64,000 nt of DNA, taken from NCBI GenBank assembly GCA_963665665.1, contig OY762428.1, positions 3,013,200 to 3,077,199 of the forward strand, given 5' to 3'. Both the position numbers and the translations under genes were made by a program. This document shows, in pieces, positions 38,700 to 56,100 of this stretch. The DNA is from Candidatus Kapaibacterium sp. Its GTDB lineage: Bacteria; Bacteroidota; Ignavibacteria; Kapaibacteriales; UBA2268. Position 1 is the stretch's first letter. The number at the start of each line of letters is the position of its first letter. The notes beneath the pieces were generated by a model. It was not told the DNA's origin. It did no database searches and worked only from the letters and a program-made list of their open reading frames with translations.

Positions 38700-40136
38700 T
38701 CAAAATGACAATTTAATGTTTGGCATTTTCTTGTGCAGCTTTTCCTTTTCTTCATCTGAAAAATCATTTTTCCTGAGTTTAAGAACTTTCAGTTGCGGCA
38801 ATGAAGTAATACCATCCGGAATTGTTTTCAACCTGTTGTTATCAAGATAAATAACAGATAAATTAGGAAGTTTACTTATTTCAGGGGCAACAGTTTCAAT
38901 AATATTTTGAGTCATTTTTAATGTTTTCAAATTTGGAAGGGTAGAAATAGCTGATGGCAGTTCTTTCAACTTGTTACCCGAAAGGTCCAGCATTTCCAAA
39001 TTTTTCAGGGAGGAAATTTTTGGGTTTATCTGTGAAATTTCATTAGTCCTGGCATTAAGCATATTAAGATTTTTTAGCAGAAATATTTCATCCGGGAGAT
39101 TACTTAAATTATTTTTTGATATGTTTATTCGTATCAGCGAACTTATTTTGGAAATTCCCTTTGGTATAATGCCGTCTTTCATATCAGCTACATCCATGTC
39201 TCTTAATGATTTGAGATTTCCAATGTTTTCAGGCAGGGTTTTAATCGATGTCTGGGAAATATTCAAGTTTTTCAGAGTTGAAATATTTCCGAATTCTTTC
39301 GGAAGTGTTTCAATAGGGTTCGAACTGATATCTATAATAGAAAGATTCTTGCATTTGGCAATATTACCGGAAATACTTTCGATTTCATTTTTGCTCAGAT
39401 TCAGGTTTGCCAATCCCTGAATATCAGATATTTGATCAGGAACTTCATGGACATTATTTTTTTCCATGTCGAGTGTTCGCAGGCTGCTCATCTTGTAGCA
39501 TGCACCGGGAATACTGTCGAAATTGTTATTTTCAATTTTCAATGATGACAGATTCTGTAAAGATGCCATAGATTGGGGGATATCCGACAATTCATTTTTT
39601 GCAAGTTTAAGCTCTTTCAATGCAGTGATTTTTGAAATATCGGGATTAATATCTTTAATCGCATTTTTTTCAAAATCAATTTTTTCAAGCCACGGCATTT
39701 TGGTTAAAACTTCAGGAAATTCAGAAAAATTATTTGAAGAAAGATCCAATATTTTTAAATTTTTCATACTGGCAAAATTTGCAGGGATCTTTGAAATATT
39801 ATTTTTTCCAAGGTCAAGTCTTTCAAGCTTAACAAATTTATCAATGAAATCAGGTATAGCTTCAATTTTTTTTCCTTTTAATTTAAGCCTTGTCAGGGTG
39901 GCTGCATCCTTAAGAGCATCTTCAAAACTATTATAATTTTTGCGAGCCATAGGGCCGTCTTTGCGCTTACTCCTGATAAGCTTACGTTGTTTTTTTCTTT
40001 CTTCCCTGTTTTGTTTTACTTTTTCTTTATAGTTTTTCAAAGAAGTAGCTTTTTGTTCCTGTCCGGCAAAAACATTATTAGTAAAAGTTCCTGCAAGAAG
40101 GGATAAAGCTGTCAACAATAATATAAGGGATTTCAT
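38700..40136 (-). CDS. Leucine-rich repeat (LRR) protein, secreted
   Basis: About 16 tandem 23-24-aa LxxLxLxxNxLxxLP units. Signal peptide begins at MKSLILLL (ATG 40136, with a GAGGA SD); the ORF-track start at 40223 is less likely. Confidence 0.75.
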   Translation of the reverse strand: MKSLILLLTALSLLAGTFTNNVFAGQEQKATSLKNYKEKVKQNREERKKQRKLIRSKRKDGPMARKNYNSFEDALKDAATLTRLKLKGKKIEAIPDFIDKFVKLERLDLGKNNISKIPANFASMKNLKILDLSSNNFSEFPEVLTKMPWLEKIDFEKNAIKDINPDISKITALKELKLAKNELSDIPQSMASLQNLSSLKIENNNFDSIPGACYKMSSLRTLDMEKNNVHEVPDQISDIQGLANLNLSKNEIESISGNIAKCKNLSIIDISSNPIETLPKEFGNISTLKNLNISQTSIKTLPENIGNLKSLRDMDVADMKDGIIPKGISKISSLIRINISKNNLSNLPDEIFLLKNLNMLNARTNEISQINPKISSLKNLEMLDLSGNKLKELPSAISTLPNLKTLKMTQNIIETVAPEISKLPNLSVIYLDNNRLKTIPDGITSLPQLKVLKLRKNDFSDEEKEKLHKKMPNIKLSF

Positions 40137-40197
40137 TTTAGTCCTCATCAAAATTAAAAGTAAGTTAAATAGATAACACATATTATACAATAATAAT

Positions 40198-41697
40198 TTA
40201 ATTTTTTCTTTTATCAATGGCAAAAACTTTTTCCGTAATTCTTGATAATCTTACGAAAGGCAGGCCAATTAATAAATACACCGCAGCTATCATTATTCCG
40301 ATACCGAAGTAATCGTAGTATGTGGCAGCAAGCCTGCTGTATAGTTTTGTCAATTCAACTAAAGTTATGACGGACACAAGGGAAGAATCTTTCAACAAAG
40401 AAATAAAATCATTTGTAATTGGTGGTATAACCAGCCTGACAGCCTGCGGAAGGATAATGTGCCTGAGGGATTGATATTTTGTCATTCCAAGGGAAATAGC
40501 CGCTTCGGTTTGCCCTCTTGGTACAGAATTCAGCCCTGCACGATAATTCTCAGCCTCGTAGGCTGCATAGTTCAGCCCAAGCCCGATAACTGCCGCCATA
40601 AATGGAGATAATTTGATTCCTATTGTAGGGAGTGCGTAAAATATAAATATCAATTGAATCAGAAGCGGGGTTCCCCTGATAATTTCGATATAGCTAACAG
40701 CAAGCCAGGAGAAAGGAGCCGGGGCATATACACGGGTTAATGCAAGGAACAGTCCGAATAGTATAGCAAGGATCATGGCAAAAATCGAAATCCCGAGTGT
40801 CATCAATGCAGCTTCCCCGATCAAAGGAAGAAAGCCAATGTATTGATGCAATTTTACACTGAAATTTACTTCGTTTCCCTGTGATGCAACAAACCTGTCA
40901 AATTCTGTAGGTGAAATATCAACTTCATCATGATCGTTGAAAAATAATTTCATCTTATAATTCCACAGGTTCCATTTGCCGTAGATTTCCCTTAGCTGTC
41001 CGCTGGCTGCAAGTTCATATATGGCTTTGTTTACTTTGTTAAGTAGAACTGTGTCTTCCTTTCGAAGTGCAATCCCATATTCTACATCACCAACGGGCGG
41101 CCCTACAAGTTCAAATTCAGGATTCCAGGAGCAATAATAAAGTGCTATGGGAGCATCAACAAGAGCTATGTTTATTCTGCCGTTAATCATATCGGTGAAG
41201 GCATTCACTTCGCCTTCATAGGTAAGAACATCAATATCACCTTCATCAAGAAGTATTCTTTCGGCAAGTGAATTTTTTAGGCATCCCACGGTTTGGCCAT
41301 TAAGGTCATCGAGGGAATTTATTCCCTGTGTCCCCCTGACAACAACGATTTGCTCGTATGTTTTGTAGTAGGGTATCGAAAAACTTACTACTTTTTCTCT
41401 GTCGCCCGTTATTTCCAATCCGTTCATGGCAGCATCGTAATTCCCGCTTTGCAATCCCGGAATTAGTCCGTCCCACTGATTTTGGATAAATACAGCTTTC
41501 ATACCCATTTGCGCGGCAATAGCATTAGCAATGTCAACTTCAAAACCAATATTCTTAGATAATATCGAAGGGTCCTGAAAAATATAAGGTGCGTTCCCTT
41601 CTGCGTCGGCAGCCCAGCGGAACTCAGGCAACTCTTGTGATTTTAATGAAGAAATTGCAAAAAGTGTCAGGAATAATATTTTCAGGATTGAATTCAT
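40198..41697 (-). CDS. Amino-acid ABC transporter: fused periplasmic substrate-binding domain plus permease
   Basis: N-terminal SBP_bac_3-like domain with signal peptide. C-terminal polar amino-acid permease domain containing the EAA-like block ...GMTKYQSLRHIILPQA. Confidence 0.75.
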   Translation of the reverse strand: MNSILKILFLTLFAISSLKSQELPEFRWAADAEGNAPYIFQDPSILSKNIGFEVDIANAIAAQMGMKAVFIQNQWDGLIPGLQSGNYDAAMNGLEITGDREKVVSFSIPYYKTYEQIVVVRGTQGINSLDDLNGQTVGCLKNSLAERILLDEGDIDVLTYEGEVNAFTDMINGRINIALVDAPIALYYCSWNPEFELVGPPVGDVEYGIALRKEDTVLLNKVNKAIYELAASGQLREIYGKWNLWNYKMKLFFNDHDEVDISPTEFDRFVASQGNEVNFSVKLHQYIGFLPLIGEAALMTLGISIFAMILAILFGLFLALTRVYAPAPFSWLAVSYIEIIRGTPLLIQLIFIFYALPTIGIKLSPFMAAVIGLGLNYAAYEAENYRAGLNSVPRGQTEAAISLGMTKYQSLRHIILPQAVRLVIPPITNDFISLLKDSSLVSVITLVELTKLYSRLAATYYDYFGIGIMIAAVYLLIGLPFVRLSRITEKVFAIDKRKN

Positions 41698-41698
41698 A

Positions 41699-42556
41699 TT
41701 AAATGTCCACTCGTATGTTCAGATAATCCCTTGTTCTTTTGTCACGAGGATTCGAGAAAATGGTTTCGGCGCTTCCTGTTTCAATAATCTGTCCGCTTTC
41801 CATATATGCTACTCTGTCCGATATGTTTTTTGCAAAATCAATAGCATGAGTTACGATCACTTGTGTCATTCCTTCTTCATGAAGGTTTTTCATTACTTCT
41901 GTAAGCTCTCCTATCAGTTCGGGGTCAAGGGCTGATGTTGGCTCATCGTAAAGCATTACCATGGGGTTCATTGCAAGTGCCCTTGCAATAGCAACTCTTT
42001 GTGCCTGTCCGCCTGATATCTCTGTGGGGTAACGGTCGGCAAAGCGTTCCATACCAACTTTTCTTAAAAGGTCGAAAGCATTATCGCTGGCATCCTTTTT
42101 ATTTTCTCCCTTCACAATAAGCGGCGCTACCCGTACATTTTCAAGAACTGACAAATGAGGAAAAAGATTTAATCCCTGGAACAGCATTCCCACCCGCGAC
42201 CTAACCAAACATGCTTTCTCGTCGAGTTCAGAATGCCTTCTGCTGCTCAGCTTTTTGTCAGGAATAACATAAGCTATTTTATTCATTATTTCCCTGATCA
42301 TGTTATCCTGTTTCTTTTTTTCATCACATTTATCCCTGTCCAGTGTGATGCCGTCAATCTCTATACTTCCTTTGTCAGGTATTTCCAGGCAGTTCATGCA
42401 CCTGAGCAAAGTGGTTTTGCCGCAGCCGCTTCTTCCTATAATTGATAATAATTCGCCTTTTTTTATTTCCAGTTCAAGGCCTTTTAAAATATGATTATCA
42501 TTAAAATATTTATGAAGGCTGGTGATTTTTATTAAATTTTCTGAAATAAAAGCCAT
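41699..42556 (-). CDS. Amino-acid ABC transporter ATP-binding protein (GlnQ/ArtP-like)
   Basis: Walker A GRSGCGKTT, LFPHLSVLENV, signature ISGGQAQRVAIARAL, Walker B LYDEPTSALD. Confidence 0.85.
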   Translation of the reverse strand: MAFISENLIKITSLHKYFNDNHILKGLELEIKKGELLSIIGRSGCGKTTLLRCMNCLEIPDKGSIEIDGITLDRDKCDEKKKQDNMIREIMNKIAYVIPDKKLSSRRHSELDEKACLVRSRVGMLFQGLNLFPHLSVLENVRVAPLIVKGENKKDASDNAFDLLRKVGMERFADRYPTEISGGQAQRVAIARALAMNPMVMLYDEPTSALDPELIGELTEVMKNLHEEGMTQVIVTHAIDFAKNISDRVAYMESGQIIETGSAETIFSNPRDKRTRDYLNIRVDI

Positions 42557-42838
42557 TTTTTTTACAGATTAAGATTTTATTAATATCGTATAGTTAAGTA
42601 TCAAATAATTCCCGTGATTTTTCCATACGGAATATATTAAATTTCTCCGTATAATTATAAAAAAAATATTTTGAAGTATAATTTTTGTAACAATATTGCG
42701 CAAAACAGTAGTATTCCTTTGGAAATTAAAATGGATAATACTAAATTATTTTTAGGGATAATAAGTATTTTTTGAAATATTACCAAATCTTCATATTTTT
42801 ATCAACATAATTGAATTGTTTTTCAAAAAGGGATTACA

Positions 42839-43072
42839 ATGAGTTTTAAATACAAAAAACCAGAATTGAAAGTATTAAATGATGATTCGATGTTATTTTG
42901 TAATAACGGAACATCGGCTCAAGCTGTCGGGCCGTCATATCAATGTATATCAGGAACTTCAGTCAATCCGGTACTTTGCACCGACGGTAGCACAAATGAC
43001 GGGGTTTTTGTTCAGTGCGACAGCGGTGGATCTGCATTTGGTTTTGCCTGCGCAGTCGGCGGAACAGATTAA
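42839..43072 (+). CDS. RiPP precursor peptide 1 (77 aa; Cys/Gly/Ser/Thr-rich core with five C-x-x-G motifs)
   Basis: MSFKYKKPELKVLNDDSMLFCNNGTSAQA leader-like N-terminus, then a core of CNNGT/CISGT/CTDGS/CDSGG/CAVGG. Followed by a hairpin terminator, and lies next to a PqqD-like gene and two rSAM-SPASM genes. Confidence 0.65.
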   Translation: MSFKYKKPELKVLNDDSMLFCNNGTSAQAVGPSYQCISGTSVNPVLCTDGSTNDGVFVQCDSGGSAFGFACAVGGTD

Positions 43073-43167
43073 TCAGCTTTGATCATTGTAATAAATATTG
43101 ACCAATGTTATAAAATATTTTGTGTATAGATAATAAAACAGCGTGAAAAAAGTTTGAAATTAAGAAT

Positions 43168-43206
43168 AAAGCCGTATTTGAATGTTACGGCTATTTTTTT
43201 TTTTAT
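43168..43206 (+). terminator. Rho-independent terminator/attenuator immediately after precursor peptide 1
   Basis: aaagccgtatttgaatgttacggctattttttttttt: stem agccgta/tacggct plus an 11-nt T-tract. Confidence 0.7.
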
Positions 43207-43260
43207 TAAATTATATGTTTAAAAAGTAGTAATGTATTTACAACAATAAATGAGGCAGAA

Positions 43261-43545
43261 ATGGCAAACAACCCTATTGCAAACCCGATGATAGTTCACA
43301 GGGTGGAGGATGATGACTGGGCGGTTCTATTTGATCCCGACGCTAACGAAACTTACGCTCTCGATCCTGTTAGTTCTTTTGTGTGGCAATTATTGGACGG
43401 TAAGCACAGCAAGGAAGAAATTCTGGCAAAACTGGAAAAAGAATGTGAGGATGGAATTCCCGAAGAAGCTGCAACAGACCTGGATGAGTTTCTTACAGAA
43501 CTGGAAGCAAAAGCTCTTGTTGGATACGAGCAGGCAATTGGTTAA
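43261..43545 (+). CDS. PqqD-family peptide chaperone (RiPP recognition element, stand-alone)
   Basis: 94 aa; block ETYALDPVSSFVWQLLDGKHSKEEILAKL...ATDLDEFLTELEAKAL matches the PqqD pattern (..ylLN.tg..iW.lldG..t..ei...l.....v.......dv..fl..L...gl). Confidence 0.75.
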   Translation: MANNPIANPMIVHRVEDDDWAVLFDPDANETYALDPVSSFVWQLLDGKHSKEEILAKLEKECEDGIPEEAATDLDEFLTELEAKALVGYEQAIG

Positions 43546-43547
43546 TT

Positions 43548-44681
43548 ATGAAAATTGAACGCACTCCTAAAAGCCTTGACCTTGAAATTACAAGCAAGTG
43601 CAACCTAAGGTGTTCTTATTGCTCTCACTTCAATAGCGAAGGTGATACCGATACCGATTTAAGCACTGATGAATGGCTGCAATTCTTCGAAGAGCTGAAA
43701 GAATGCAACGTTATGGATGTTACTCTTTCTGGTGGCGAACCATTCATGAGAAAAGATATCCGTATCCTGCTTGACGGGATAATAAAAAATAGAATGAGGT
43801 TCGGATTTCTTACGAATGGTATTCTTTTTAATGATGACCTGGCTGAATATATTAAAACAACAGGCCGATGCAACAGTATCCAGGTTTCAATCGACGGCCC
43901 CGGCCCTGAAATTCATGATGCTTCGCGTGGTAAGGGAAGCTTTGAAAAAGCAATCGCCGGGCTTAAAACGATAATGAGACACGGCCTTCCTGCCACGGTA
44001 CGTGTTACGATAAACAAGCACAACTATAAAAAACTTCCTGAAATAGCTGAAATGTTGCTTGAAGAAGTAGGGCTTCATTCATTTTCAACAAACGCAGCTT
44101 CTCATCTCGGGCTTTGCCGTACTAATAAAGACGATGTTCAGCTTGGTGTGGAAGAATATACTGAATCAATGCAGACGATATTTACACTTGTTGAAAAGTA
44201 TGGCAACAGGATAAATGCCCAGGCAGGCCCTCTTGCATCAGGCAAGCAATGGATGGAAATGGAAAAAGCCCGGCAGAATAATTTAGATAATCTTCCCGGA
44301 TGCGGATATCTTACAAGTTGTGGCGGGATTTTCGCAAAAATGGCAATTCAGGCTGACGGATCAATGGTACCGTGTTCGCAGTTGCCGCACATGAAACTTG
44401 GTAAGGTCAACGTGGACAGCCTTGCAGATGTATGGCTGAATCATCCTGAGCTTAAACGCCTGCGTGAAAGAAGAGATATTCCGCTTGGTACATTTGACTC
44501 ATGCAAGGGCTGTTCGTATATACCTTATTGCAGGGGCGGATGCCCGGCACTGGCATATACCCTGAACGGAGATGAGAATGTTCCTTCTCCGGAATCATGC
44601 TACAGGAATTTTCTTGCTGCGGGTGGAAGATTGCCGGTTTTAGATGATAACGAGCCATTTTTTAGTCCGGGATGTTGCTGA
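43548..44681 (+). CDS. Radical SAM / SPASM-domain peptide-modifying enzyme 1
   Basis: CNLRCSYC (CxxxCxxC) near N-terminus. C-terminal auxiliary-cluster Cys array CGYLTSCGG...C...CKGCSYIPYCRGGCPA typical of SPASM. 3 nt after the PqqD-like gene. Confidence 0.85.
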   Translation: MKIERTPKSLDLEITSKCNLRCSYCSHFNSEGDTDTDLSTDEWLQFFEELKECNVMDVTLSGGEPFMRKDIRILLDGIIKNRMRFGFLTNGILFNDDLAEYIKTTGRCNSIQVSIDGPGPEIHDASRGKGSFEKAIAGLKTIMRHGLPATVRVTINKHNYKKLPEIAEMLLEEVGLHSFSTNAASHLGLCRTNKDDVQLGVEEYTESMQTIFTLVEKYGNRINAQAGPLASGKQWMEMEKARQNNLDNLPGCGYLTSCGGIFAKMAIQADGSMVPCSQLPHMKLGKVNVDSLADVWLNHPELKRLRERRDIPLGTFDSCKGCSYIPYCRGGCPALAYTLNGDENVPSPESCYRNFLAAGGRLPVLDDNEPFFSPGCC

Positions 44682-44827
44682 TGAAAATAAAATTTAGCAT
44701 CACTATCTTAAATATATACCAAACATAAAATACGTTTCCTGGATAGTTTGGTTTAACAGTGGATTAAATATAAATATTGTTTTTTGAATTTGTTCATTAC
44801 AGTAAAAATTTTGAAAATTGGATTATT

Positions 44828-45103
44828 ATGAAAAAGAAATTTAGCTATACCAGACCATCGCTATCATCATTGTCAGATGAAATATCTCAATTCTGTAATG
44901 TAGGAACAGGAGCAACTTTAGCTGATACTCCTGCTATTCAGTGTACTGTTGGTGGGGATGCACAGCTGATTTGTGTTGCCGGTACCGGTTTTTCCAGTAC
45001 GTATCCACATTGCGCTAATGGCCCTGCTGATTCAAAACTTGCATGTTCAACAGGATCAGGGGACACTAATCCCAGCTGTAATGTTGGCAATTCACCAGTT
45101 TAA
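44828..45103 (+). CDS. RiPP precursor peptide 2 (91 aa; six C-x-x-G motifs)
   Basis: MKKKFSYTRPSLSSLSDEISQF leader, then CNVGTG/CTVGGD/CVAGTG/CANGPA/CSTGSG/CNVGNS. Sits between the two rSAM genes. Confidence 0.65.
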   Translation: MKKKFSYTRPSLSSLSDEISQFCNVGTGATLADTPAIQCTVGGDAQLICVAGTGFSSTYPHCANGPADSKLACSTGSGDTNPSCNVGNSPV

Positions 45104-45130
45104 TATATTAACAATAAATACTTAATAATT

Positions 45131-46261
45131 ATGAGCGAAGAAAAAAATACAGAATTTAAAGTACCGGAATGCGGTTATCCGCTGAGCCAGATATATTTTT
45201 ACATGACTGAAGGATGCAACCTGAAATGCCGTCACTGCTGGATAGAACCGAAATTCCAGGCTTCCGGCAATAGTAAATGGCCCTCTATTGAGTTTGACCT
45301 TTTCAAGGATATATGCTATCAGGGCAGGGAACTTGGAATGAACTCAGTTAAACTAACCGGCGGGGAGCCACTGATAAATCCTGATATTGACAAAATACTT
45401 GATTTCATTTATGAGGAGAAGTTCAGGCTGACAATTGAAACTAACGGCATCGAACTGACACCTGAAATTTGTGAAAAGATTGCCCGGTGTGAAGGCACTT
45501 TTGTTTCAATCAGCCTTGATGGCTCAACAGCAGAAGAACACGAATGGGTTCGCGGTGTTCCGGGTTGTTTCGAAGCAGCATTGCAAGGCGCACGGAATCT
45601 TGTAGCCGTGGGAATAAGGCCGCAGTTTATAATGTCGATAATGAAAAGGAATGCACACCAGATAGAAGATATTATTGAACTTGCCCGGAAAGAAAACGCC
45701 GAGTCGGTTAAATACAACCTGGTAACACCTACTGCACGTGGGGAGCAAATGCACGAGGCTGGCGAAACTCTGTCGATTGAAGAATTGATCCGTATTGGTA
45801 AATGGGTGGAAGATGAATTGCAGCCAAAGTACAAAGATGTCAGGCTTCACTATTCTCATCCGGTTGCTTTCAAGCCTTTTGGCAAAATGTTTGAAAGACC
45901 ATTGGGACGTTGCGGTATATTCGGTATTATCGGAGTGCTCGGAAATGGTAAATATGCTCTTTGCGGTATCGGTGAAACTGTCCCTGAACTTGTTTTCGGC
46001 GACGCGAGAAAAGATAAACTCGCAGATGTTTGGAATAATAACCAGGTACTTAATGATATTCGTAAAGGCTTACCAAAAGATTTGAATGGTATTTGCGGGG
46101 ATTGTCTCGTTAAAAACAAATGCCTTGGTTCCTGTGTAGCCATGAATTATTATCGTCATCACGATCTGTTTGCTCCTTTCTGGTATTGCGAGGAAGCACT
46201 TAAAGCCGGACTTTTCCCCAAAACCAGGATCAAGCCGGGATCGCCATTTGAAAAGGTATAA
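45131..46261 (+). CDS. Radical SAM / SPASM-domain peptide-modifying enzyme 2
   Basis: CNLKCRHC motif. C-terminal CGIFG...C....CGDCLVKNKCLGSCVA SPASM-like cysteine array. Confidence 0.85.
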   Translation: MSEEKNTEFKVPECGYPLSQIYFYMTEGCNLKCRHCWIEPKFQASGNSKWPSIEFDLFKDICYQGRELGMNSVKLTGGEPLINPDIDKILDFIYEEKFRLTIETNGIELTPEICEKIARCEGTFVSISLDGSTAEEHEWVRGVPGCFEAALQGARNLVAVGIRPQFIMSIMKRNAHQIEDIIELARKENAESVKYNLVTPTARGEQMHEAGETLSIEELIRIGKWVEDELQPKYKDVRLHYSHPVAFKPFGKMFERPLGRCGIFGIIGVLGNGKYALCGIGETVPELVFGDARKDKLADVWNNNQVLNDIRKGLPKDLNGICGDCLVKNKCLGSCVAMNYYRHHDLFAPFWYCEEALKAGLFPKTRIKPGSPFEKV

Positions 46262-46273
46262 AACAAATACTAA

Positions 46274-48082
46274 ATGCGTTTATGGTATAAATATCTGAAG
46301 CAGGGGCTTTCCCGTAAGCTGCCTGTCGATAAGTTCAATGAAGAATCGAACTACGGCAGGCTCAGGGATAATATTAAACTATTATTTCCTCCGATAAAAA
46401 AACACTGGAAGGCCGGGCTGATATCAATGTTTGTTCTGGTTCTGTCATCAGTCCTGACTTATCCCCTGCCAATGATAAACAAATATTTTATCGATGACGT
46501 TTTGCTGAAAAAGAGGATTGACCTTGTTGTTCCGGTAGTATTACTATTAACGGGAATTGGCCTTGCTTCGTATCTGACGGGCGTGTTGAAAGGCTTTTAT
46601 AATCAGCGATTCACACAGGAAGTGATACTCGATCTGCAAAAGACAATGATCGATAAGGTTTTGTCACTCCCAAAATTCTTCTTTGATAAAAATCGATCCG
46701 GCTATCTTATGTCAAGGATATCCGGAGATGTTCACGGTGTAAACTGGTTTCTTTCCGGCCCTATGGTTCAAATGTTTCTCCAGGCTATGAAATTCATTGG
46801 TGGTGTTTATTTCCTGATATTCCTGGAATGGCGTCTGGCAATTCCGGTTATTCTTACCTTGCCGATACCATTTTTCGCAATGCGTTATTTTGCTAAGCGG
46901 TCTTATATTATGAGCCATTATACCAGCGAAATGAATGCAAAAACAAACGCCAGCCTGCATGAAACTGTTAATACTGTTTCTCTTATTAAATCTTTTGCCA
47001 ACGAGAAAAAAGCATCAAAGTCCCTATTCAGGATGTTGAGAAAAAAAGTTAACATCGGGTATGAACAAAACAGTATGAATTCTCTTAGCAGTTTGATCAA
47101 CCAGCTAATGCCACAGGTTGCCAAATTTGCTGTTATGCTTTTTGGCGCTTACTGGGTAATCAGCGGCGAGTGGCAATTGGGATCTCTTATCGCTTTCCAA
47201 TCATACTTATCCTACGTGTACGGGCCGGTAAATCAGCTTTCTTCCAGTATGAACCAATTGCAGACAGCCCGGGCAACAATGGACAGGGTTGCTACTATTC
47301 TCGGAATGGATTCCGAAGAGAATACTGACAGCGGAGATGAAATTACGAAACTGACCGGAAGCATAGAATTTGATAATGTAAGCTTCGGGTATGATAAGAA
47401 AAAACCTGTTTTATCTAATCTTTCCTTTAATATAAAAGCAGGGGAACAATGGGCTGTGATCGGCCCAAGCGGTATTGGTAAAACGACGCTTATCAGCCTG
47501 CTTTTAAAATTTTATTCCACTGATTCCGGAGATATTCTATTTGATGATAAGTCCTGTAAAGATATCAATGTGCGTTCTTTAAGAAGAAGGCTTGGCTATG
47601 TGGCACAATCAACGAGCCTGCAAACAGGAACAATTCTGAAAAATCTGAAATACGGAAATCCCGGAGCAAGTGTAGAAGATATAGTTAAAGCAGCAAAGAT
47701 TGCCGGAATTCATGAATTTATTGAAGAACTGCCCGAAAAATATAATACCCATATAGAAGAAGGCGGCGCTAACCTTTCCGAAGGCCAGAAACAAAGGCTT
47801 TCTATTGCAAGAGCTCTTGTTCTGAATCCTGATATTTATATACTGGATGAACCAACTGCTTCAGTAGATAACCTGACTGAACAGTCAATTTACAAAGCTC
47901 TTCCTGAAACAATAAAAAATAAGACAACAATCACTATAGCACACAGGTTAAATACTATTAAATCAGCAGAAAAAATATTATTTTTGAGAAAGAATAAAAT
48001 TCCTCTTATCGGTTCACATAATGAATTGAAAGGCGATGATGATTACATGGAATTTTTCGAAACTATAAATAATTGTAACTGA
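46274..48082 (+). CDS. ABC exporter, fused permease-ATPase (no C39 peptidase domain)
   Basis: Six predicted TM helices, then Walker A GPSGIGKTT, signature LSEGQKQRLSIARAL, Walker B ILDEPTASVD. Confidence 0.85.
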   Translation: MRLWYKYLKQGLSRKLPVDKFNEESNYGRLRDNIKLLFPPIKKHWKAGLISMFVLVLSSVLTYPLPMINKYFIDDVLLKKRIDLVVPVVLLLTGIGLASYLTGVLKGFYNQRFTQEVILDLQKTMIDKVLSLPKFFFDKNRSGYLMSRISGDVHGVNWFLSGPMVQMFLQAMKFIGGVYFLIFLEWRLAIPVILTLPIPFFAMRYFAKRSYIMSHYTSEMNAKTNASLHETVNTVSLIKSFANEKKASKSLFRMLRKKVNIGYEQNSMNSLSSLINQLMPQVAKFAVMLFGAYWVISGEWQLGSLIAFQSYLSYVYGPVNQLSSSMNQLQTARATMDRVATILGMDSEENTDSGDEITKLTGSIEFDNVSFGYDKKKPVLSNLSFNIKAGEQWAVIGPSGIGKTTLISLLLKFYSTDSGDILFDDKSCKDINVRSLRRRLGYVAQSTSLQTGTILKNLKYGNPGASVEDIVKAAKIAGIHEFIEELPEKYNTHIEEGGANLSEGQKQRLSIARALVLNPDIYILDEPTASVDNLTEQSIYKALPETIKNKTTITIAHRLNTIKSAEKILFLRKNKIPLIGSHNELKGDDDYMEFFETINNCN

Positions 48083-48085
48083 CAG

Positions 48086-48961
48086 ATGCAGCAGGCAAAA
48101 CAAATAGAACAATTTTATCTGAAACTTTCGGATGGCAGCAAATGGGGATTCAATTCAGCTCCTGAATTGAAAGAATGGTTTAGCATATTTGCCAGAATAA
48201 TGTCTTTGAAAAAAGATAACTCTGATGTGGATTATTTGTTTAATATCCGGCCCAAAAACGGAAGGGAAATTCCTGCCGGAGTTGATGAAAGCTGGGATTC
48301 TTTCAGGCAAAGCGGGGCATATACTATATGGAGCAAAAAAGGGGAAAAACAGTTTTTAATTGAAATAAACAAAGAGTTTATCGACCACCCCGAGATTAGA
48401 GTGATAAATATGTGGTCAACATTGAAGGCTCTATATAAATTTTATGCTGAGAACGGTGGAGGCCCGGTTCATAGCGGAATGGCAGCCCTGAATGGCAAAG
48501 CTATACTGATAGCTGCCCCGGGGGGTACCGGGAAATCAACATCCATACGCAGGCTGCCGGATTATTGGAAAAAAATGTGCGATGACACAACCCTGATAGT
48601 AAAAAAAGATGATAATTTCTTTGTTCATCCCATGCCTACATGGAGTGACCATCTATGGGAGCATAATTTTACTACTTTCGATACTTCAAGGGGATTCCCA
48701 TTAGCAGCTGTTTTCTTTCTGAAGCAGTCCGGCACTGACAAAGTTACCCCGATTTCCAGGCCTGAAGGCATTCAGTTGCTTTTAAGTTCAGTTAAACAGG
48801 TTTTTCAAACTTATGTTGATAAGTTGAAGGATAATGAAAAGTCTGAAATGGCTATGAAACTGTTTGATAACACCTGTAATATTGTTGGAAAAACACCATG
48901 CTACAGGCTTGAAGCTACATTGAACGGGGATTTCTGGGAAGAAATTGAAAAGGTATTATAG
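48086..48961 (+). CDS. HPr-kinase/phosphorylase C-terminal-domain-like P-loop protein
   Basis: HSGMAALNGKAILIAAPGGTGKSTSIRRL....DDTTLIV parallels the HprK P-loop region (H...G.GVLI.G.SG.GKSE.AL.L...G..LV.DD). Confidence 0.55.
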   Translation: MQQAKQIEQFYLKLSDGSKWGFNSAPELKEWFSIFARIMSLKKDNSDVDYLFNIRPKNGREIPAGVDESWDSFRQSGAYTIWSKKGEKQFLIEINKEFIDHPEIRVINMWSTLKALYKFYAENGGGPVHSGMAALNGKAILIAAPGGTGKSTSIRRLPDYWKKMCDDTTLIVKKDDNFFVHPMPTWSDHLWEHNFTTFDTSRGFPLAAVFFLKQSGTDKVTPISRPEGIQLLLSSVKQVFQTYVDKLKDNEKSEMAMKLFDNTCNIVGKTPCYRLEATLNGDFWEEIEKVL

Positions 48962-49560
48962 TGGAAAAGCACAAGCCGCAATATAATACAAGTGTCGGGC
49001 CAAGCATGTACCCGACAATGAAAAGCGGCGATGCATATATCCTTAAAGAAATATCTTCTATTGATGAAATATGCCGGGGAGATGTAATTGTTTTTCCCCA
49101 CCCTGACGAACCAATTAATGTTGTTCACAGAATTATTAGGATTTATCCCGAAGGTTTTCAAACCAGGGGAGATAATAATAACCGTAAAGATCCCTATATT
49201 GTGAAAAAGGATGATATTATCGGTGTGGTGGGCAAGGTTATCAGGAAAAATAAAAGATATACTATTCATGGCGGAAATGCGGGATTATTCATCCACAGGA
49301 TGGCTTGGGCCAGGAAATATTCCCGGCCCTATATTGTAAAGCCACTGAAGTTTTTATTGAATTTGCTGATCAGATCAAAAATATTCTTCATTTTCGGAAA
49401 TTTCTTTTCAACTTCAATCACAAAAATTAACCGAATGGGTTCCGAGCAATTTATCTTAAGTGTAAATAAAAAACCGGTTGGAAAAAAAGAATCAAAGGAA
49501 TCTGCGTGGATAATTAGTTTCCCTTATAGTTTGTTTATTAATCCGAAGAAATTACCATGA
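48961..49560 (+). CDS. S26 signal-peptidase-like serine peptidase (SipW/ER-type Ser-His), candidate leader peptidase
   Basis: GPSMYPTMKSGD (SM.PT catalytic Ser box), GDVIVF, and VVHRIIRI (His box of SipW/archaeal-type S26). Stop overlaps start of precursor 3 (ATGA). Confidence 0.6.
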   Translation: MEKHKPQYNTSVGPSMYPTMKSGDAYILKEISSIDEICRGDVIVFPHPDEPINVVHRIIRIYPEGFQTRGDNNNRKDPYIVKKDDIIGVVGKVIRKNKRYTIHGGNAGLFIHRMAWARKYSRPYIVKPLKFLLNLLIRSKIFFIFGNFFSTSITKINRMGSEQFILSVNKKPVGKKESKESAWIISFPYSLFINPKKLP

Positions 49561-49781
49561 AATACCGAAAACCAAAAATATACAGACTTTTCCCATCGAA
49601 AATAGACATAAGCGCCTGTATGGACGGTGAGCAGGCTTCGAGCATGGCCTGCGTATCCGGCCCGGAGGCATCCAGCGGGTGTAAAACCGGGGCTGCTGCC
49701 GGTACGGCATGTAAGGATGGTTCCGCTGCCGGATTCAGTTGCAACAGCGGTGCAGGATTCGAGGAATGGGAAAGGAAGTAA
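49557..49781 (+). CDS. RiPP precursor peptide 3 (74 aa; five C-x-x-G motifs)
   Basis: MKYRKPKIYRLFPSKIDISA leader, then CMDGE/CVSGP/CKTGA/CKDGS/CNSGA at about 10-residue spacing. Start codon overlaps the S26 stop, indicating translational coupling. Confidence 0.65.
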   Translation: MKYRKPKIYRLFPSKIDISACMDGEQASSMACVSGPEASSGCKTGAAAGTACKDGSAAGFSCNSGAGFEEWERK

Positions 49782-49835
49782 ATTGTTTTATAATAATAAC
49801 ATAGTGTATTATTAATCATATAAGGCATTAATAAA

Positions 49836-50615
49836 ATGAAAATATCAATATTAACCGAAAATACAGCAGCGCCTTATTTCCTTGCGGAATTTGGTTTTTC
49901 ATGCTTTATAGAAACAAACGGGAATAATTTTCTTTTTGATTTAGGCGCCACGGACATTTATCTGAAAAATGCCGAAAAACTTGGCATTGATATAGATAAT
50001 TGCAATAATGTTATTCTCAGCCATGGCCACTGGGATCATGGAAACGGCCTTAAATACATTAAGGGAAAAAATCTATTATGTCATCCGGGGGCTTTTCGTA
50101 AAAGATACCACAAAGGTGATGATAATAATATCGGCCTTGAAATGACTAAAGAAGAAATTGAGACAAATTTCTGCCTGACAAGCTCGGCGAAACCATATTA
50201 TATTGATGAAAATATAATTTTCCTTGGAGAAATTCCCAGGCTGAATGATTTTGAATCAAAGGAATCAGATTTTATACTCTCCGACGGAAGCGAGGATTTT
50301 GTAAGTGATGATACCGCCATGGCCATTGTTGAAGACGGCAGGCTAATCATCATTTCCGGGTGCGCCCATTCCGGAATTTGTAATATTATAGAATATGCGC
50401 GTAATATTTCCGGCATTTCGGACGTGAAAGCTGTGCTGGGCGGCTTCCATTTAAAAAATGAAAACCGTCAGTTGGATGAAACAATTAAATATTTTAAAAA
50501 ATTAAATGCAAAGCAGCTTTATCCCTGCCACTGTACTCAATTGCCTGCTATGGCAGCTTTTTATAACAATTTTAAAATTAACAGGATAATGGCAGGAAAC
50601 ACATTGGAAATTTAG
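49836..50615 (+). CDS. MBL-fold metallo-hydrolase
   Basis: LSHGHWDHGNGL (HxHxDH) plus downstream His/Asp; 259 aa. Confidence 0.75.
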   Translation: MKISILTENTAAPYFLAEFGFSCFIETNGNNFLFDLGATDIYLKNAEKLGIDIDNCNNVILSHGHWDHGNGLKYIKGKNLLCHPGAFRKRYHKGDDNNIGLEMTKEEIETNFCLTSSAKPYYIDENIIFLGEIPRLNDFESKESDFILSDGSEDFVSDDTAMAIVEDGRLIIISGCAHSGICNIIEYARNISGISDVKAVLGGFHLKNENRQLDETIKYFKKLNAKQLYPCHCTQLPAMAAFYNNFKINRIMAGNTLEI

Positions 50616-50624
50616 GAAAATAAA

Positions 50625-51482
50625 ATGAAAACATATATTGATTGTATTCCATGCTTTATGAACCAGGCGCTAAGGGCCGGAAGAATATCCACAAGCGATG
50701 ATATAATACTTAAAAAAATAATGGATAACGTAGGCGGGAAGCTGAAAGATGTATCCCTTACCGAAGTACCGCCCCGTTCGGCAATGATCATATACGATGA
50801 AATATTTCGCCAGACGGGAATAGAAGACCCTTACAAAAAAATCAAAAAGGAAAGTATAGACCTTGCTAAAAGTATTCTGGGGCAAATCAGAAATATGGTG
50901 GAATCTGCCCCCGACCCGTTACTTGCTGCCGTAAAAGCAGCAATTGCAGGTAATATTATTGATTTTGGTGCCTGCGAGGATTTTGATATTAAAAAGGATG
51001 TAAAGGCATCTATGGATATGGACTTATCTATAAACGATTATGAGGTTTTCAAAGAAAAAATAAATTATGCACGTACAGTCCTTTACCTTGGGGATAATGC
51101 CGGGGAAACTGTTTTTGACAGGTTGCTAATCGAGAATATTGACGCAAGGGTGGTTTATGCTGTCAGGGAGAAACCTATTATCAATGATGCAGTGATAGAA
51201 GATGCAGTTGATTCCGGCCTGGCCGATATATGCGAGATAATTTCTTCAGGCAGTACTGCTCCTGCAACTATTCTTGAAGAATGTAATGAACGGTTTTTAG
51301 GTCTTTATCACGGCGGAGCTGATATTATCATCAGCAAAGGGCAGGGAAATTACGAGAGTTTATCTGATAGTAACGAAAATATTTTCTTCCTTCTTAAAAC
51401 TAAATGCAGCGTTATTGCCCGCGACCTTGATACCGAAACAGGTGCACTTGTATTGAAAGCCGGTAAAAATTATGATTTGTAA
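50625..51482 (+). CDS. DUF89 (ARMT1-like/damage-control phosphatase family) protein
   Basis: N-terminal YIDCIPCF..QAL and overall length/pattern resemble PF01937 members; weakly supported. Confidence 0.45.
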   Translation: MKTYIDCIPCFMNQALRAGRISTSDDIILKKIMDNVGGKLKDVSLTEVPPRSAMIIYDEIFRQTGIEDPYKKIKKESIDLAKSILGQIRNMVESAPDPLLAAVKAAIAGNIIDFGACEDFDIKKDVKASMDMDLSINDYEVFKEKINYARTVLYLGDNAGETVFDRLLIENIDARVVYAVREKPIINDAVIEDAVDSGLADICEIISSGSTAPATILEECNERFLGLYHGGADIIISKGQGNYESLSDSNENIFFLLKTKCSVIARDLDTETGALVLKAGKNYDL

Positions 51483-51688
51483 ATATATTTTTCGGGTTCT
51501 GTTAAACAACCAATATTCAATGATATAGAGTTAATTGTTGTTATTATCGGCGAATATAGTAGTTCCCCGGAATATTATTTATGTCGGAAAGTTGAGCCTG
51601 TGATATGTAATATTTGAATTTACCCGGGCGATTTTGAACCTTGTGATTAATAATTGCTTTCAGTAAATTTGCCAGGAAATTTTATTTA

Positions 51689-53140
51689 ATGGGATACTCA
51701 ATGACAGGGAATAAGCCAGATAGAAATACTGCTGACAGTATAAAGGCAATGCTAAAAGGCGGGGCAATTTATTCATTTGGAAATATGCTGCAGCAATTCC
51801 TTAATTTTATTCTCATTCCGGTTTACACGGCATTTCTAACAACCGGGGACTATGGAATTATTGGTTTAATGACTATAACTGCCGGTTTGATACTGCCATT
51901 TACTAAAACACCTGCGGCCAACGGATTTGTCCGCTTTTATTATTCTCCCGGATACGAAAATAAAAGAAAGACACTTTTTTTCAATTCAGTAATATTTTGC
52001 CTTGCACAGTCCTTTATAATCGGATTGATATTTTACCTGTTTTCTTCATTTTGGGCCGGACTGATACTATCGGATATTTCACTCGATAATATCGTAAAAA
52101 TATATGCAATAATTATTTTCTTGCAGCCAATTGAAGACCTGTCCCAGGATTTGGTAAAAATTCAGAAAAAAGCCGGGCTTTTTGTTGTCATGCAATTATT
52201 ACGCCTGCTACTTGGTGCCGCACTTATACTTTATTTATTATTAATCGCTAATTCTGGCGTGATGGCTTTGGTTTGGGGGGCATTGTTCTCCTCCGCATGG
52301 CCTGTTCTATTCTTTATGCCATTGATAGCCAAAAATATTGAAATTAAATTTGACCTTAATTCGCTACGGCCCTTACTCAAATTTGGTTATCCCCTGATTC
52401 TGACAACGCTTTCTTTGTATCTTGCCGAATATGCAGATCAATATATTATTAAGTTTATGGCAGGAATATCCGATGCAGGGCTGTATTCTTTTGCCTACAA
52501 ATTCGGGGCATTAACCGGATTTATACTGGTGCTGCCTCTGCATAGCATAATCGACCCCCTTGTATACGAACTTGAAAGCAGAAAAGCGGAGTTAATTACT
52601 TTTATGAAAAGGGCTACAACATTATTTTATGCTGCGGTACTATATTTTTCCGTTATATTATCCCTTTTGTCCAAAGAAGTAATTCATATATTTGCAAGCA
52701 AACCTGAATTTTACCCTGCCTGGGAGATAGTACCATTAATATCCTTTGCTTATTGCCATTATGGTTTGATGTACTTGTTTGGACGTGGATTAATTATGGC
52801 AAAAAAGAGCAAACTGACCGGGCTAATATATTTAATATCGGCAGTAATAAATATTTTTATGAATATAATTCTAATTCCTGTATGGGGCCTTACCGGTGCT
52901 GCCGTTTCCACAATCATTTCCTTTATTCTTATGGGATTGCTTTCAGCATTTTACTCGGCGAAATATTATAATTTCAAATATGATAGCAAAAAACTGATAA
53001 TATTGACATTAGTATATTTTGCAGCAGTAACTCCTGCATACTTCAGTATTGCTGATATGATAACTGGCCTGTTGATTAAATCAGTAATAATAATTGTATT
53101 TACGGTAGCAGCATATTATGTTATCAAAAAGGACTTGTAG
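51689..53140 (+). CDS. MOP-superfamily polysaccharide flippase (Wzx-like) membrane protein
   Basis: About 12-14 predicted TM helices across 483 aa; topology and length typical of Wzx/polysaccharide biosynthesis proteins. Confidence 0.55.
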   Translation: MGYSMTGNKPDRNTADSIKAMLKGGAIYSFGNMLQQFLNFILIPVYTAFLTTGDYGIIGLMTITAGLILPFTKTPAANGFVRFYYSPGYENKRKTLFFNSVIFCLAQSFIIGLIFYLFSSFWAGLILSDISLDNIVKIYAIIIFLQPIEDLSQDLVKIQKKAGLFVVMQLLRLLLGAALILYLLLIANSGVMALVWGALFSSAWPVLFFMPLIAKNIEIKFDLNSLRPLLKFGYPLILTTLSLYLAEYADQYIIKFMAGISDAGLYSFAYKFGALTGFILVLPLHSIIDPLVYELESRKAELITFMKRATTLFYAAVLYFSVILSLLSKEVIHIFASKPEFYPAWEIVPLISFAYCHYGLMYLFGRGLIMAKKSKLTGLIYLISAVINIFMNIILIPVWGLTGAAVSTIISFILMGLLSAFYSAKYYNFKYDSKKLIILTLVYFAAVTPAYFSIADMITGLLIKSVIIIVFTVAAYYVIKKDL

Positions 53141-53141
53141 T

Positions 53142-56100
53142 TTAAATTTTTGGCAGAGTGAATGAGAACTCCGATCCTTTTCCGGGCTTGCTTTTTACAG
53201 ATATTGTTCCGCCGTTTTTCTCCACAAACTCTTTGCAAAGTATTAAACCTAAACCCGTTCCTTTTTCATTATTTGTTCCCGGAGTAGAGGAGTTTTTATC
53301 AATCCTGAACAGATCATCGATTCTCTCTTCTTCAATACCAATTCCACTGTCGCAGATGATTATTTCAATGAATTTATCATTTTCTTTGTTAGCAATTTCA
53401 ATTGTACCGCCTTCGGGGGTAAATTTTATTGCATTTGACAGCAGGTTGCGGAAAACAGTATTGATCATTGCTTTATCGAAATAAGCAAAAAGATTCTTGT
53501 CTGATTTATCAATTATTTCAATTTTTTTATTATCAATATTGACTTGTAATAATTTACGAACATTTTCAATTGAAAATCTCATATCTGCTATCAGTGGATG
53601 GAATTCAAGCCTGCCGGTCTGGGAGCGGGACCATTGAAGTAAATTTTCCAAAAGGTTCAGCGTCTGCTTTGAAGAATCATACAGGATATTGATGAAATTT
53701 TTCCTTGCGTCACTTGTAATATCTTCATAATTCTGTAATAGTATCTCGGAAATATTCATAAGCCCGCCAAGGGGATTTTTCAGGTCATGAGCGATAATTG
53801 AAAAGAATTTGTCCTTCATTGCATTTGATTCCTGAAGGCCTGCTTCGGAATCGCTTATTATCCTGTTCAGTTCAGCAAGCCTTATTGCTTCTTCTTCAAT
53901 TGTCTGGCGTGATATAAACAGTTCTTCGTTTAGTTTTTCCAACTCGTCCTGGGTACGTTTTCTTTCTTCATTTTCAAACCGCAGCTCTTCCATTGCATCC
54001 TGTAGCTGTGCAGTACGGTCCCTGACTTTTATTTCCAGGTCTTTATTCAATTCGTGCAGCTTATTCTCAATTTTTTTCTTATCGGAAATGTCAACAAATG
54101 AAGCAAGAAGTTTTATCGGTTTCCCTTTGCTGTCCCGCACAAAGTTAACTGAAACCATTACGTCAAAAGTGCTTCCGTCTTTCCGTATTGCCACGGATTC
54201 TACTGTTCCGCCTCCCTGGTTCAAATGCCCAAGAACCCTGTCGGTTTCTCCTAATTGGCCAAAATATTTAATATTTTTGCCGATGATCTCCGCAATATCA
54301 TCATAACCCCAAAGATTGAGATATGCCTGGTTTACATATTCTATAGTGCCGTCCAGGCTGGCAATACCGAGGCCGAAAACGGCAGATTCGATAGCAGAGT
54401 TCTTTATATGCAATGATTCTTCTGCTTTTTTTAGTGGTGTAATATCCATTGTTACGCCTATAATGGATAATACTTTGCCATCTTTATTTTTTAATGGATA
54501 AGCCGATGTAACAGTATGAATTTTCTGGCCGTTTGAGTTCATCATGGTTACTTCAAAGGATTGGCCTGCTTTTGTCTGCAAAATTCTTGCAATGAAGTTT
54601 TCTACTTTGTTGTAATTCCCCCTGTGAAATTCTGATAATTTTTTATTAATAACGGCATTCTTCTTAAGCCCGAATATGTTTTCTGCCCCGGGCGAGAATT
54701 CACTAATAACGGGGCCTCCATCTTTAAAATCAGCAATCAGGAATCCTACAGTATTAGCAGCTTCAAAAATTGAACGCAGTTTGGCTTCGTTGGCTTCCAG
54801 TGCATCGCGGGCAATTTTGGTTTCTGTAATGTCGTCTAGAATGGTTGCAAGCAGGTTATTGTGGAATTTGAAAATAGAAATTTTGAAGTATTTTACCGGG
54901 TTTTTCAAAGGAAATCCCATTACCAGTTTTATTCCGCCATCAGAACTATTTAATTTATTAACAATATCTGCAAATGGAAAAGTGCTTTTAGGATTTAATT
55001 CTGAAACTTTTCGCCCAACAAAATCTGTTCTTTTTATTCCATAAATAGATCTGAAACTTTCAATAAATAGTTTATTTGCATTACGGATAATTGTATCCAC
55101 AACTTCATCGTCTTCATTTTTAACAATTTCATGAATAGCACAGGCAGAATTCATATTATCAAAAAGCTGGATAAATCGCTCGTTACTTTTTTGCAGTTCC
55201 TTTTCAGATTCTATACGGGCTGTAATGTCTCTTGATGTTATTATGATACCATTTATCGGATCAACATCCAGCAGGTTGTTTGCAACAGCTTCATGCCAGG
55301 TATAGGTGCCGTCCTTATGCATTAGCCTGAAAACAGTAGGAACCAGTTTATTTGTTCCGCTAAGAACTTCGTTAAATTCCCGGATAGAATGCTCTTTATC
55401 GTCAGGATGAACCAAATCCCACATATTGACTTCATTAAGTTCATTTTCTGAATAACCAAGAATCTGGCATGACGAAGGAGTTTCGAATTTTATATTTACA
55501 TTTTCATCAACAATCCATACAATATCGGACATATTCGCAAGGATAGACCTGAACTTTAACTCATTTTGCTCAAGAGCTTTCTCAACTTTTTTTACATCAG
55601 AAATATCGAATATAACTCCTCTGAATCCTACGGGTTTTGAATCCTTGATAATAACATCTGAATGAATTGCAACAGGAAAAGTCGATCCGTCCTTTCTTAG
55701 GGCAATGTATTCAGATGCCTTAGACCTTTGGCCCATAGCAATTTTCCGCATATTTTGAACCGCGCGTTCCCTGTGCTCGGGTATTATCATATCAATAGCG
55801 TTGATCGAATCTATATCAACTTCATCAGGCTTGTAGCCGAATTTATCACGGGCAGCTTTATTGCCGTAAGATAAATTTCCTTTCAAATCCGATTCATATA
55901 TTATCTGTGGCAGCAGGTCGGAAAGCTGGCGGAATCGTTCTTCGCTTTCTTTCAGTTTGTTTTTGGATTTTATTCTGGATATTGCAATTGCCAGCATATA
56001 AGCTATTGATTCCAGAAATTTCATTTTTTTATCAGTCAATGTGTCAGCATCGTTAGCGGCAACATTTAACGAACCATATATTTTGCCCGGACTTAGTTTT

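Follow-up and report, generated by a model that had tools for sequence, protein, structure and literature searches.

A SynChlorMet cassette of Candidatus Kapaibacterium sp. with a putative precursor-peptide kinase, a candidate leader peptidase and three candidate precursors

We studied a gene cluster at positions 42839-49781 of a 64,000-nucleotide stretch of DNA from Candidatus Kapaibacterium sp. (contig OY762428.1, positions 3,013,200 to 3,077,199 of the forward strand), which at its full length is referred to here as the window. Judged by its protein family assignments, the cluster is a member of the SynChlorMet (Scm) cassette, which is catalogued in NCBIfam but uncharacterised. Within it, ScmC, a P-loop protein resembling HPr kinase (HprK) and phosphoenolpyruvate carboxykinase (PEPCK), is encoded directly before a 199-residue S26 peptidase and the last of three Cys-rich precursor peptides. 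By analogy with the linear polyphosphorylated peptides (LPPs) of Bacillota, which belong to the RiPPs (peptides made by the ribosome and modified after translation), we propose that ScmC phosphorylates the precursors and that the peptidase removes their leaders, a reading to which we assign a probability of roughly 0.55. The kinase-peptidase pair would then be a variant of the LPP module that was first shown in 2026, joined here to two radical SAM enzymes. Two things are new for the SynChlorMet cassette: a delineated precursor family, and a peptidase whose link to ScmC is as firm as that of the radical SAM genes.

The cluster consists of nine tightly packed genes, all on the + strand (from the window's list of open reading frames, ORFs; protein lengths in amino acids, aa):

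42839-43072, +: precursor 1, 77 aa; leader KYKKPEL and a Cys-rich core of C-x-x-G repeats
43261-43545, +: ScmD, a discrete PqqD-like RiPP recognition element (RRE); TIGR04248 is the best family, with a match to Pfam PqqD
43548-44681, +: ScmE, radical SAM/SPASM maturase; TIGR04250, 546.8 bits (cutoff 400), with Radical_SAM and SPASM domains
44828-45103, +: precursor 2, 91 aa from ATG; leader SYTRPSL and a core of C-x-x-G repeats
45131-46261, +: ScmF, second radical SAM/SPASM maturase; TIGR04251, 519.5 bits (cutoff 400)
46274-48082, +: MsbA-like ATP-binding cassette (ABC) exporter; Pfam ABC_membrane and ABC_tran
48086-48961, +: ScmC, 291 aa, HPr-kinase/PEPCK-like P-loop protein and putative precursor-peptide kinase; TIGR04249
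48961-49560, +: 199-aa SEC11/SipW-type S26 peptidase and putative leader peptidase, with a GTG start; TIGR02228 and Pfam S26
49557-49781, +: precursor 3, 74 aa; leader KYRKPKI and five C-x-[DST]-G repeats

A preliminary description of 48086-49560 had reported ORFs of 291 and 199 aa there, with the stop of the second overlapping the start of precursor 3. Both were present as described, and the source metagenome contig, where genes were called independently, gave the same 291-, 199- and 74-aa genes. The TAG stop of ScmC and the GTG start of the peptidase have one base in common, and in the ATGA at 49557-49560 the TGA stop of the peptidase and the ATG of precursor 3 overlap. As ScmC and the peptidase score above the TIGR04249 and TIGR02228 cutoffs and have hundreds of homologues each, they are not chance ORFs. 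For precursor 2 the longest ORF begins at a TTG (44777-45103, 108 aa), but both the conservation of the leader and the gene call in the public record indicate a start at the ATG at 44828. A promoter and terminator scan of positions 42400-52000 found fewer terminator-like sites than in shuffled sequence.

The assignment to the SynChlorMet cassette, which the preliminary description had not recognised, is carried by ScmC, ScmE and ScmF. All three scored above curated NCBIfam cutoffs, with ScmE and ScmF representing two radical SAM/SPASM proteins in one cluster. ScmD matched TIGR04248 over its full length and as its best family, yet at 85.8 bits it lies under the 100-bit cutoff for membership; it also matched Pfam PqqD with E=1e-15. 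When the ScmD family profile was compared with solved structures, the best relative was LppB, the recognition protein of the LPP system (9x8z_B, E=1.2e-8), followed by the lasso peptide B1 proteins TbiB1 and TfuB1, with PqqD also found lower. The identity of 9x8z as LppB was confirmed from the data statement of PMC13381572. Public records name ScmC homologues “SynChlorMet cassette protein ScmC”, and the NCBIfam models for the cassette cover four proteins only (TIGR04248-TIGR04251, for ScmD, ScmC, ScmE and ScmF). The peptidase and the precursors of the window matched no Scm-specific NCBIfam model, and precursor 1 had no NCBIfam or Pfam match of any kind.

ScmC matched TIGR04249 along its full length (residues 10-291; 227 bits, cutoff 125). 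The Pfam release searched gave no match to it; the public record assigns it to a newer entry, PF27840 “ScmC”. Its P-loop, A144-P-G-G-T-G-K-S-T152, is encoded at nucleotides 48515-48541. Across 26 diverse homologues H129, G149-K150-x-T152, R156, P158, D166-D167 and an HPMPTWS motif were invariant. In a search of the ScmC profile against all PDB sequences, HPr kinase/phosphorylase came first (1ko7, E=1.7e-3, then 1jb1, 2qmh, 1knx and 3tqf), and in the profile alignment ScmC had its His, P-loop and Asp-Asp pair lined up with the equivalent HprK residues. The lasso-peptide kinases require a His-Lys-Asp-Asp motif (PMC9266682), and ScmC carries exactly this set.

The AlphaFold2 model of ScmC was of high confidence (predicted local distance difference test 92, predicted template modelling score 0.90), and all 50 matches listed in a Foldseek comparison with the PDB were PEP carboxykinases (E from 3e-8 to 2e-6). 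The nucleotide-binding P-loop fold of PEPCK is related to the HPr kinase fold. Based on this model, the fold of ScmC is of the PEPCK/HprK P-loop type. The claim in the preliminary description that the 291-aa protein is HPr-kinase-like thus stands as far as profile and fold are concerned: HprK structures were best by profile, the fold was that of PEPCK and no unrelated P-loop fold was found. We give about even odds to a role of ScmC as a kinase acting on the precursors, an assignment made by analogy.

The ScmC family is large: clustered at 50% identity, it has 949 representatives at E<=1e-30. Among other arrangements seen in the family, one protein (P0323) has ScmC fused to a SAM-dependent methyltransferase domain, and another (P0334, 600 aa) has the C-terminal part of ScmC preceded by an N-terminal region that contains hydrophobic stretches and carries no annotation. 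Several loci have a second, more divergent ScmC paralogue (L013:11747-12679, L026, L030, L062, L066, L010 and L012), with a third in L026, and up to four precursors.

The 199-aa protein scored 70.7 bits against TIGR02228, the archaeal-type signal peptidase I family (cutoff 51.85), and 27 bits against Pfam Peptidase_S26 (cutoff 22.9). Its catalytic positions were located at Ser15 (nucleotides 49003-49005, in a GPSMYPT box), His56 (49126-49128, in a VVHRII box) and Asp77 (49189-49191). In alignments of 30 locus-derived and of 34 database homologues, G13, S15, M16, P18, G40, D41, H56, R57, G70, D71 and D77 were invariant, with D71 and D77 spaced like the two Asp residues of the SEC11 GDNNxxDD box. 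The family profile had human SEC11C (E=8e-11) and SEC11A as its best solved relatives, with bacterial SpsB-type enzymes lower. Since the profile is closest to SEC11 and the Ser, His and Asp are invariant, with His and not Lys as the base, we assigned the protein to the Ser-His(-Asp) ER/SipW/archaeal subtype. The preliminary description had proposed a SipW/ER-type Ser-His peptidase of family S26, and the retention of both boxes bears this out. A profile of the locus-derived peptidase sequences found 571 proteins.

The peptidase differs from a secretory enzyme in its N-terminus. No hydrophobic or transmembrane segment was detected there in the window protein or in 60 homologues (19-residue Kyte-Doolittle windows, none >0.91), and the Kyte-Doolittle maxima of the C-terminal parts of the same proteins were mostly <1.6. 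The peptidase therefore cannot act as a normal secretory signal peptidase and, from its sequence, is presumably cytosolic. That it is instead an ordinary SipW-like secretory signal peptidase, in the operon by chance, is hardly credible: it does exceed the cutoff of an NCBIfam family named for signal peptidase I, and public sources label its homologues “signal peptidase I”, but its catalytic Ser lies 15 residues from the N-terminus with no anchor before it, its gene adjoins that of ScmC in 55 of 61 loci across many phyla, and fusions join it to ScmC, to a nucleotidyltransferase and to precursors.

Residues ~100-199 of the peptidase form a conserved, family-specific C-terminal domain in which W183, I185, P188 and L198 are invariant or nearly so. 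In the AlphaFold2 model it consists of three helices followed by a three-stranded sheet. The arrangement of the domains in this model is uncertain (predicted template modelling score 0.49), and its best Foldseek match in the PDB was insignificant (E=0.07). We considered whether the domain might be a built-in RRE, and this was unsupported, as no PDB relative was found for it and it had no profile similarity to ScmD.

The association of the two proteins was assessed in 80 ScmC loci, one genome per species. These loci span Victivallales and other Lentisphaerota, many Desulfobacterota, Chlorobium, Nitrospirae, Omnitrophota and Saganbacteria, and also include Aminicenantes, Planctomycetes, Fibrobacterota, Calditrichaeota, Eubacteriales and the archaeal Methanocella. 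A homologue of the S26 peptidase was present in 61 of the 80; its gene immediately follows that of ScmC in 53 loci and immediately precedes it in 2. Where at least 6 kb was available on both sides of ScmC (35 loci), an RRE was found in 29, the peptidase in 28, a radical SAM protein in 24, an ABC exporter in 16 and a nucleotidyltransferase in 14. The peptidase is thus tied to ScmC at least as tightly as the radical SAM enzymes are (28 versus 24 loci), and seven of these well-flanked loci had ScmC and the peptidase with no radical SAM gene nearby. In addition, an unbiased clustering of neighbouring ORFs identified a protein of ~410 aa with the Pfam domain NTP_transf_5 in 33 of the 80 loci, usually right after the peptidase.

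Gene fusions reinforce the functional link between the peptidase, ScmC, NTP_transf_5 and the precursors. A 508-aa protein from a 14.3-kb JGI metagenome contig (P0094) consists of the peptidase (residues 16-207) followed by ScmC (227-504), and a second ORF (L016:10837-12828) joins the peptidase to NTP_transf_5. Two further ORFs, from metagenome-assembled genomes of Eubacteriales (L012:9299-9847) and Aminicenantes (L013:10897-11445), combine an S26 catalytic domain with a complete precursor. In these the catalytic domain is ~100 aa long, the usual C-terminal domain is missing, and the leader of the precursor reads KYEKPGL or PYAKPFL while its core is of the C-x-x-G type. Such protease-substrate fusions could be self-processing precursors or artefacts of assembly.

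A known system close to this arrangement is that of the LPP clusters of Bacillota, which encode LppK, LppS, LppB, LppN and LppD (Popov et al., Nat Commun 2026, PMC13381572). According to that work, the LPP leader carries a YxxPxVL motif and LppK polyphosphorylates Ser3 of the core. The leader is removed by LppS, a signal peptidase I (SpI)-like enzyme with S29, H68 and D93, only when LppB is present; LppS cleaves unphosphorylated peptide poorly, and the cleavage site in the precursor LppA lies 16 residues after the leader Tyr (PMC13381572). The authors described SpI-like peptidases as new to RiPP pathways and LPPs as restricted to Bacillota (PMC13381572).

Small ORFs of the same design as the three precursors were found in at least 40 loci, often several in each. 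The leader and core pattern of the window's precursors is shared with 58 candidates from 40 related loci, and the set analyzed comprised 61 precursors. The leader consensus is K-[Y/W]-E-K-P-x-L-[I/V]-x-L, given as K-[YW]-x-K-P-x-L across the 61, and the first Cys of the core is located 16-20 positions after the aromatic residue of the leader. The cores are made of C-x-x-G repeats, with Gly at +3 of 82% of 314 Cys residues, Ala common at +6, and Ser or Thr common at +2, +4 and +5; Cys accounts for 9% of core residues and Ser/Thr for 22%. The C-termini are variable, some having charged tails after the last C-x-S-G-x-G motif (e.g., EEWERK in precursor 3). Close homologues of precursor 3 follow the peptidase in five related loci (L001, L002, L003, L005 and L007), with a 4-nucleotide overlap in L003, L005 and L007.

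A small residue tends to precede the core, the position two before the first Cys being G, A or S in 82% of precursors and the position four before it A, S or G in 62%. This pattern resembles the rule for type I signal peptidase sites, and precursor 3 (…K-I-D-I-S-A-C) fits it in part. Anchored on the first Cys, the predicted cleavage site is after the G/A two residues upstream; counted from the leader Tyr with the LppA spacing, it falls one residue earlier. Precursors 1 and 2 of the window fit neither predicted site cleanly. Taken with the synteny and the fusions, the precursor features suggest by analogy that the S26 protein is probably the leader peptidase.

Building on these assignments, conserved catalytic residues, synteny, fusions and precursor motifs, we propose the following pathway, each enzymatic step of which, like the order of the steps, is modelled on the precedents above. 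ScmD would bind the [Y/W]xxPx[L/I] leaders of the three precursors, and ScmE and ScmF would cross-link the cysteines of the C-x-x-G repeats, thioether formation, as named in the preliminary description, being an assumption. ScmC would use ATP to phosphorylate the precursor on a Ser or Thr. The Ser15-His56-Asp77 peptidase would then cut the leader 1-3 residues before the first core Cys, a step that probably needs ScmD and possibly prior phosphorylation. Export of the product would fall to the MsbA-like ABC transporter. This exporter matched only ABC_membrane and ABC_tran in Pfam, had TAP and MsbA-type exporters as its top NCBIfam matches, and showed no C39 or other protease domain among its Pfam matches. 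The suggestion in the preliminary description of a kinase-type tailoring step together with a dedicated leader protease gains support, by analogy, from the conserved synteny, the gene fusions and the LPP precedent (PMC13381572).

Several observations weigh against the proposal that ScmC phosphorylates the precursors and the peptidase frees them of their leaders. With regard to the kinase, Pfam HPrK_C, named as a check in the preliminary description, had no match to ScmC at E<=0.01; TIGR04352 (HprK-related kinase A) gave 17.2 bits against a cutoff of 200 (E=2e-3). Outside the catalytic core ScmC resembles HPr kinase to a marginal extent, though the resemblance is real, and the profile alignment (E=1.7e-3) covers only the stretch from the His to the Asp-Asp pair. 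With regard to the substrates, no conserved phospho-acceptor was found among the 61 precursors, the three window precursors all have a C-terminal residue other than Ser or Thr, and precursors 1 (…S-M-L-F-C) and 2 (…I-S-Q-F-C) are without the small-residue motif. A conserved Ser/Thr acceptor at the C-terminus, as in the substrates of the lasso kinases and as looked to in the preliminary description, was rejected, with 15 of 61 precursors ending in Ser/Thr, which equals the 22% background. With regard to the gene set, a search with the family hidden Markov model found no nucleotidyltransferase in the window (no ORF at E<=10), and in LPP systems the N-terminal helix of LppS contacts LppB and LppA, whereas the Scm peptidase has an unrelated, unannotated C-terminal domain instead. 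Finally, searches of the literature library that was available found no paper mentioning SynChlorMet, no experiment on any Scm protein, and no report in which an SpI-like peptidase or an HprK-like kinase is combined with radical SAM/SPASM enzymes.

These points give most room to an explanation in which the S26 protein is still the leader peptidase and ScmC has some other ATP-dependent role, as a small-molecule or cofactor kinase, as a phosphorylase like HprK/P, or as an ATP-driven maturase scaffold. In its favour are the confinement of the HPr kinase similarity to the nucleotide-binding core, best structural matches that are small-molecule enzymes (the PEP carboxykinases), precursors in which no conserved Ser/Thr acceptor was found, and an invariant HPMPTWS motif with no counterpart in the aligned part of HprK. 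We consider it unlikely, however, as the His-Lys-Asp-Asp set of ScmC is that which is essential in the peptide-phosphorylating lasso kinases, and as ScmC is encoded beside the peptidase, is once fused to it, and belongs to a gene set matching that of LPPs, whose kinase has the peptide as its substrate. With its 291 aa, ScmC is also far smaller than the PEPCK chains that it matched (~500-620 residues).

Another explanation leaves ScmC aside and gives the S26 protein a target other than the leader: a C-terminal follower such as the EEWERK tail of precursor 3, the links between repeats, or a substrate in immunity or regulation. We regard this as quite improbable. The only conserved small-residue motif in the precursors lies just before the first core Cys, ~16-18 residues past the leader Tyr, close to the 16 residues of the LppA site, and the two protease-precursor fusions place a whole leader between the protease domain and the core. 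The variable C-termini, with their occasional charged tails after the last C-x-S-G-x-G, and the lack of a clear small-residue site before the first Cys of precursors 1 and 2 are what can be said in its favour.

It is very improbable that ScmC serves a lanthionine-type route, in which phosphate placed on core Ser/Thr would be eliminated to give dehydro-amino acids that are attacked by Cys to form thioethers, as in the class III/IV lanthipeptide synthetases. Cores so rich in Cys (9%) and Ser/Thr (22%), with Ser/Thr common at +2, +4 and +5, would suit this chemistry. Yet no lyase or cyclase homologue was found among the conserved neighbours, two radical SAM/SPASM enzymes are already present for peptide modification, and with the known HprK-like kinases of RiPP pathways the peptide keeps its phosphate.

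We therefore retain the reading in which ScmC and the peptidase are a precursor kinase and a leader peptidase. It invites a wider speculation, which is possible and on balance doubtful: that a large superfamily of phospho-RiPPs, with ~950 clusters at 50% identity in many anaerobic bacterial phyla and in methanogenic archaea, has the ScmC-peptidase pair at its core and not the radical SAM enzymes. In such a superfamily phosphorylation might license leader removal, the C-terminal domain of the peptidase might replace the LppS helix for docking to the RRE, and protease-substrate fusions might process themselves in some lineages.

Outside the cluster, three genes follow downstream on the same strand: a metallo-beta-lactamase (MBL)-fold hydrolase (49836-50615), an ARMT1-like/DUF89 protein (50625-51482) and a Wzx-like membrane protein of the Polysacc_synt family (51689-53140). 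ARMT1-like/DUF89 proteins are a family of metal-dependent phosphatases. That these genes belong to the cluster is doubtful, because a gene similar to that of the MBL-fold hydrolase was found in one related locus only (L035). LPP clusters reportedly sit inside capsular polysaccharide loci. Further away, the convergent gene at 53142-57197 on the − strand, ~3.4 kb downstream of the cluster, encodes a multi-PAS sensor histidine kinase of 1351 aa, and a 507-aa leucine-rich-repeat protein is encoded upstream of the cluster at 38700-40223, also on the − strand.

The analysis supplies the SynChlorMet cassette with candidate precursors, recognisable by a [Y/W]xxPxL leader and C-x-x-G repeats, and with a candidate leader peptidase, and it ties the cassette to the logic of kinase, peptidase and recognition protein shown in 2026 for LPPs. 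If the proposal is correct, many anaerobic phyla and archaea would join Bacillota in having leader peptidases of the signal-peptidase-like kind and in phosphorylating their peptides, and phosphorylated, radical-SAM-cross-linked peptides would be a predicted product class. The three window precursors would then be concrete substrates for reconstitution.

Compared with known systems, each of the two proteins departs from its closest characterised family. The profile alignment of ScmC with HprK ends just past the Asp-Asp pair, after which ScmC has its invariant HPMPTWS, and the N-terminal domain of ScmC is different; on PEPCKs, by comparison, the ScmC model superposes over its whole length. The peptidase has the boxes of the SEC11/SipW/archaeal type I signal peptidases (MEROPS S26B), namely SM-x-P, GD, HR and GDNN-x3-D, and the Ser-His-Asp spacing of SEC11A, including a gap of six residues between the two Asp. 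It differs from these enzymes in having no anchor, in its extra domain of ~100 aa and in its RiPP rather than secretion context.

The lasso-peptide kinases PadeK, ThcoK, SyanK and PsmK are likewise HprK-like, have an essential His-Lys-Asp-Asp set and act on the precursor while its leader is still attached, and an enzyme resembling NTP-transferases, such as the nucleotidyltransferase-like PsmN, often accompanies them (PMC9266682). They phosphorylate a conserved C-terminal Ser, whereas the Scm precursors have no conserved C-terminal Ser/Thr, and the lasso leader peptidase is the cysteine protease B2, whereas that of the Scm cassette would be an S26 serine peptidase.

The closest comparison is with LPPs. 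The window has the same set of an HprK-like kinase, an archaeal-type Ser-His-Asp peptidase, a discrete PqqD-type RRE and an MsbA-like exporter; all four occur in its single cluster and recur in related loci, ScmC and the peptidase having been compared with LppK and LppS by published description. NTP_transf_5, the fifth LPP component, occurs in 33 of the 80 Scm loci. LppB is the closest solved relative of ScmD, and the leader motif [Y/W]xxPx[L/V/I] is common to both systems, while the downstream LPP consensus HQxIxFET is not found in Scm. There is no counterpart of the LppS N-terminal helix in the Scm peptidase, because its catalytic Ser is already at residue 15. The Scm cassette also differs in its Cys-rich C-x-x-G precursors and, having two radical SAM/SPASM maturases in the operon, falls outside the linear, phosphorylation-only product class. 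Its range is wider than that of LPPs, taking in Lentisphaerota, Desulfobacterota, Chlorobi, Nitrospirae, Omnitrophota, Saganbacteria, Methanocella and others.

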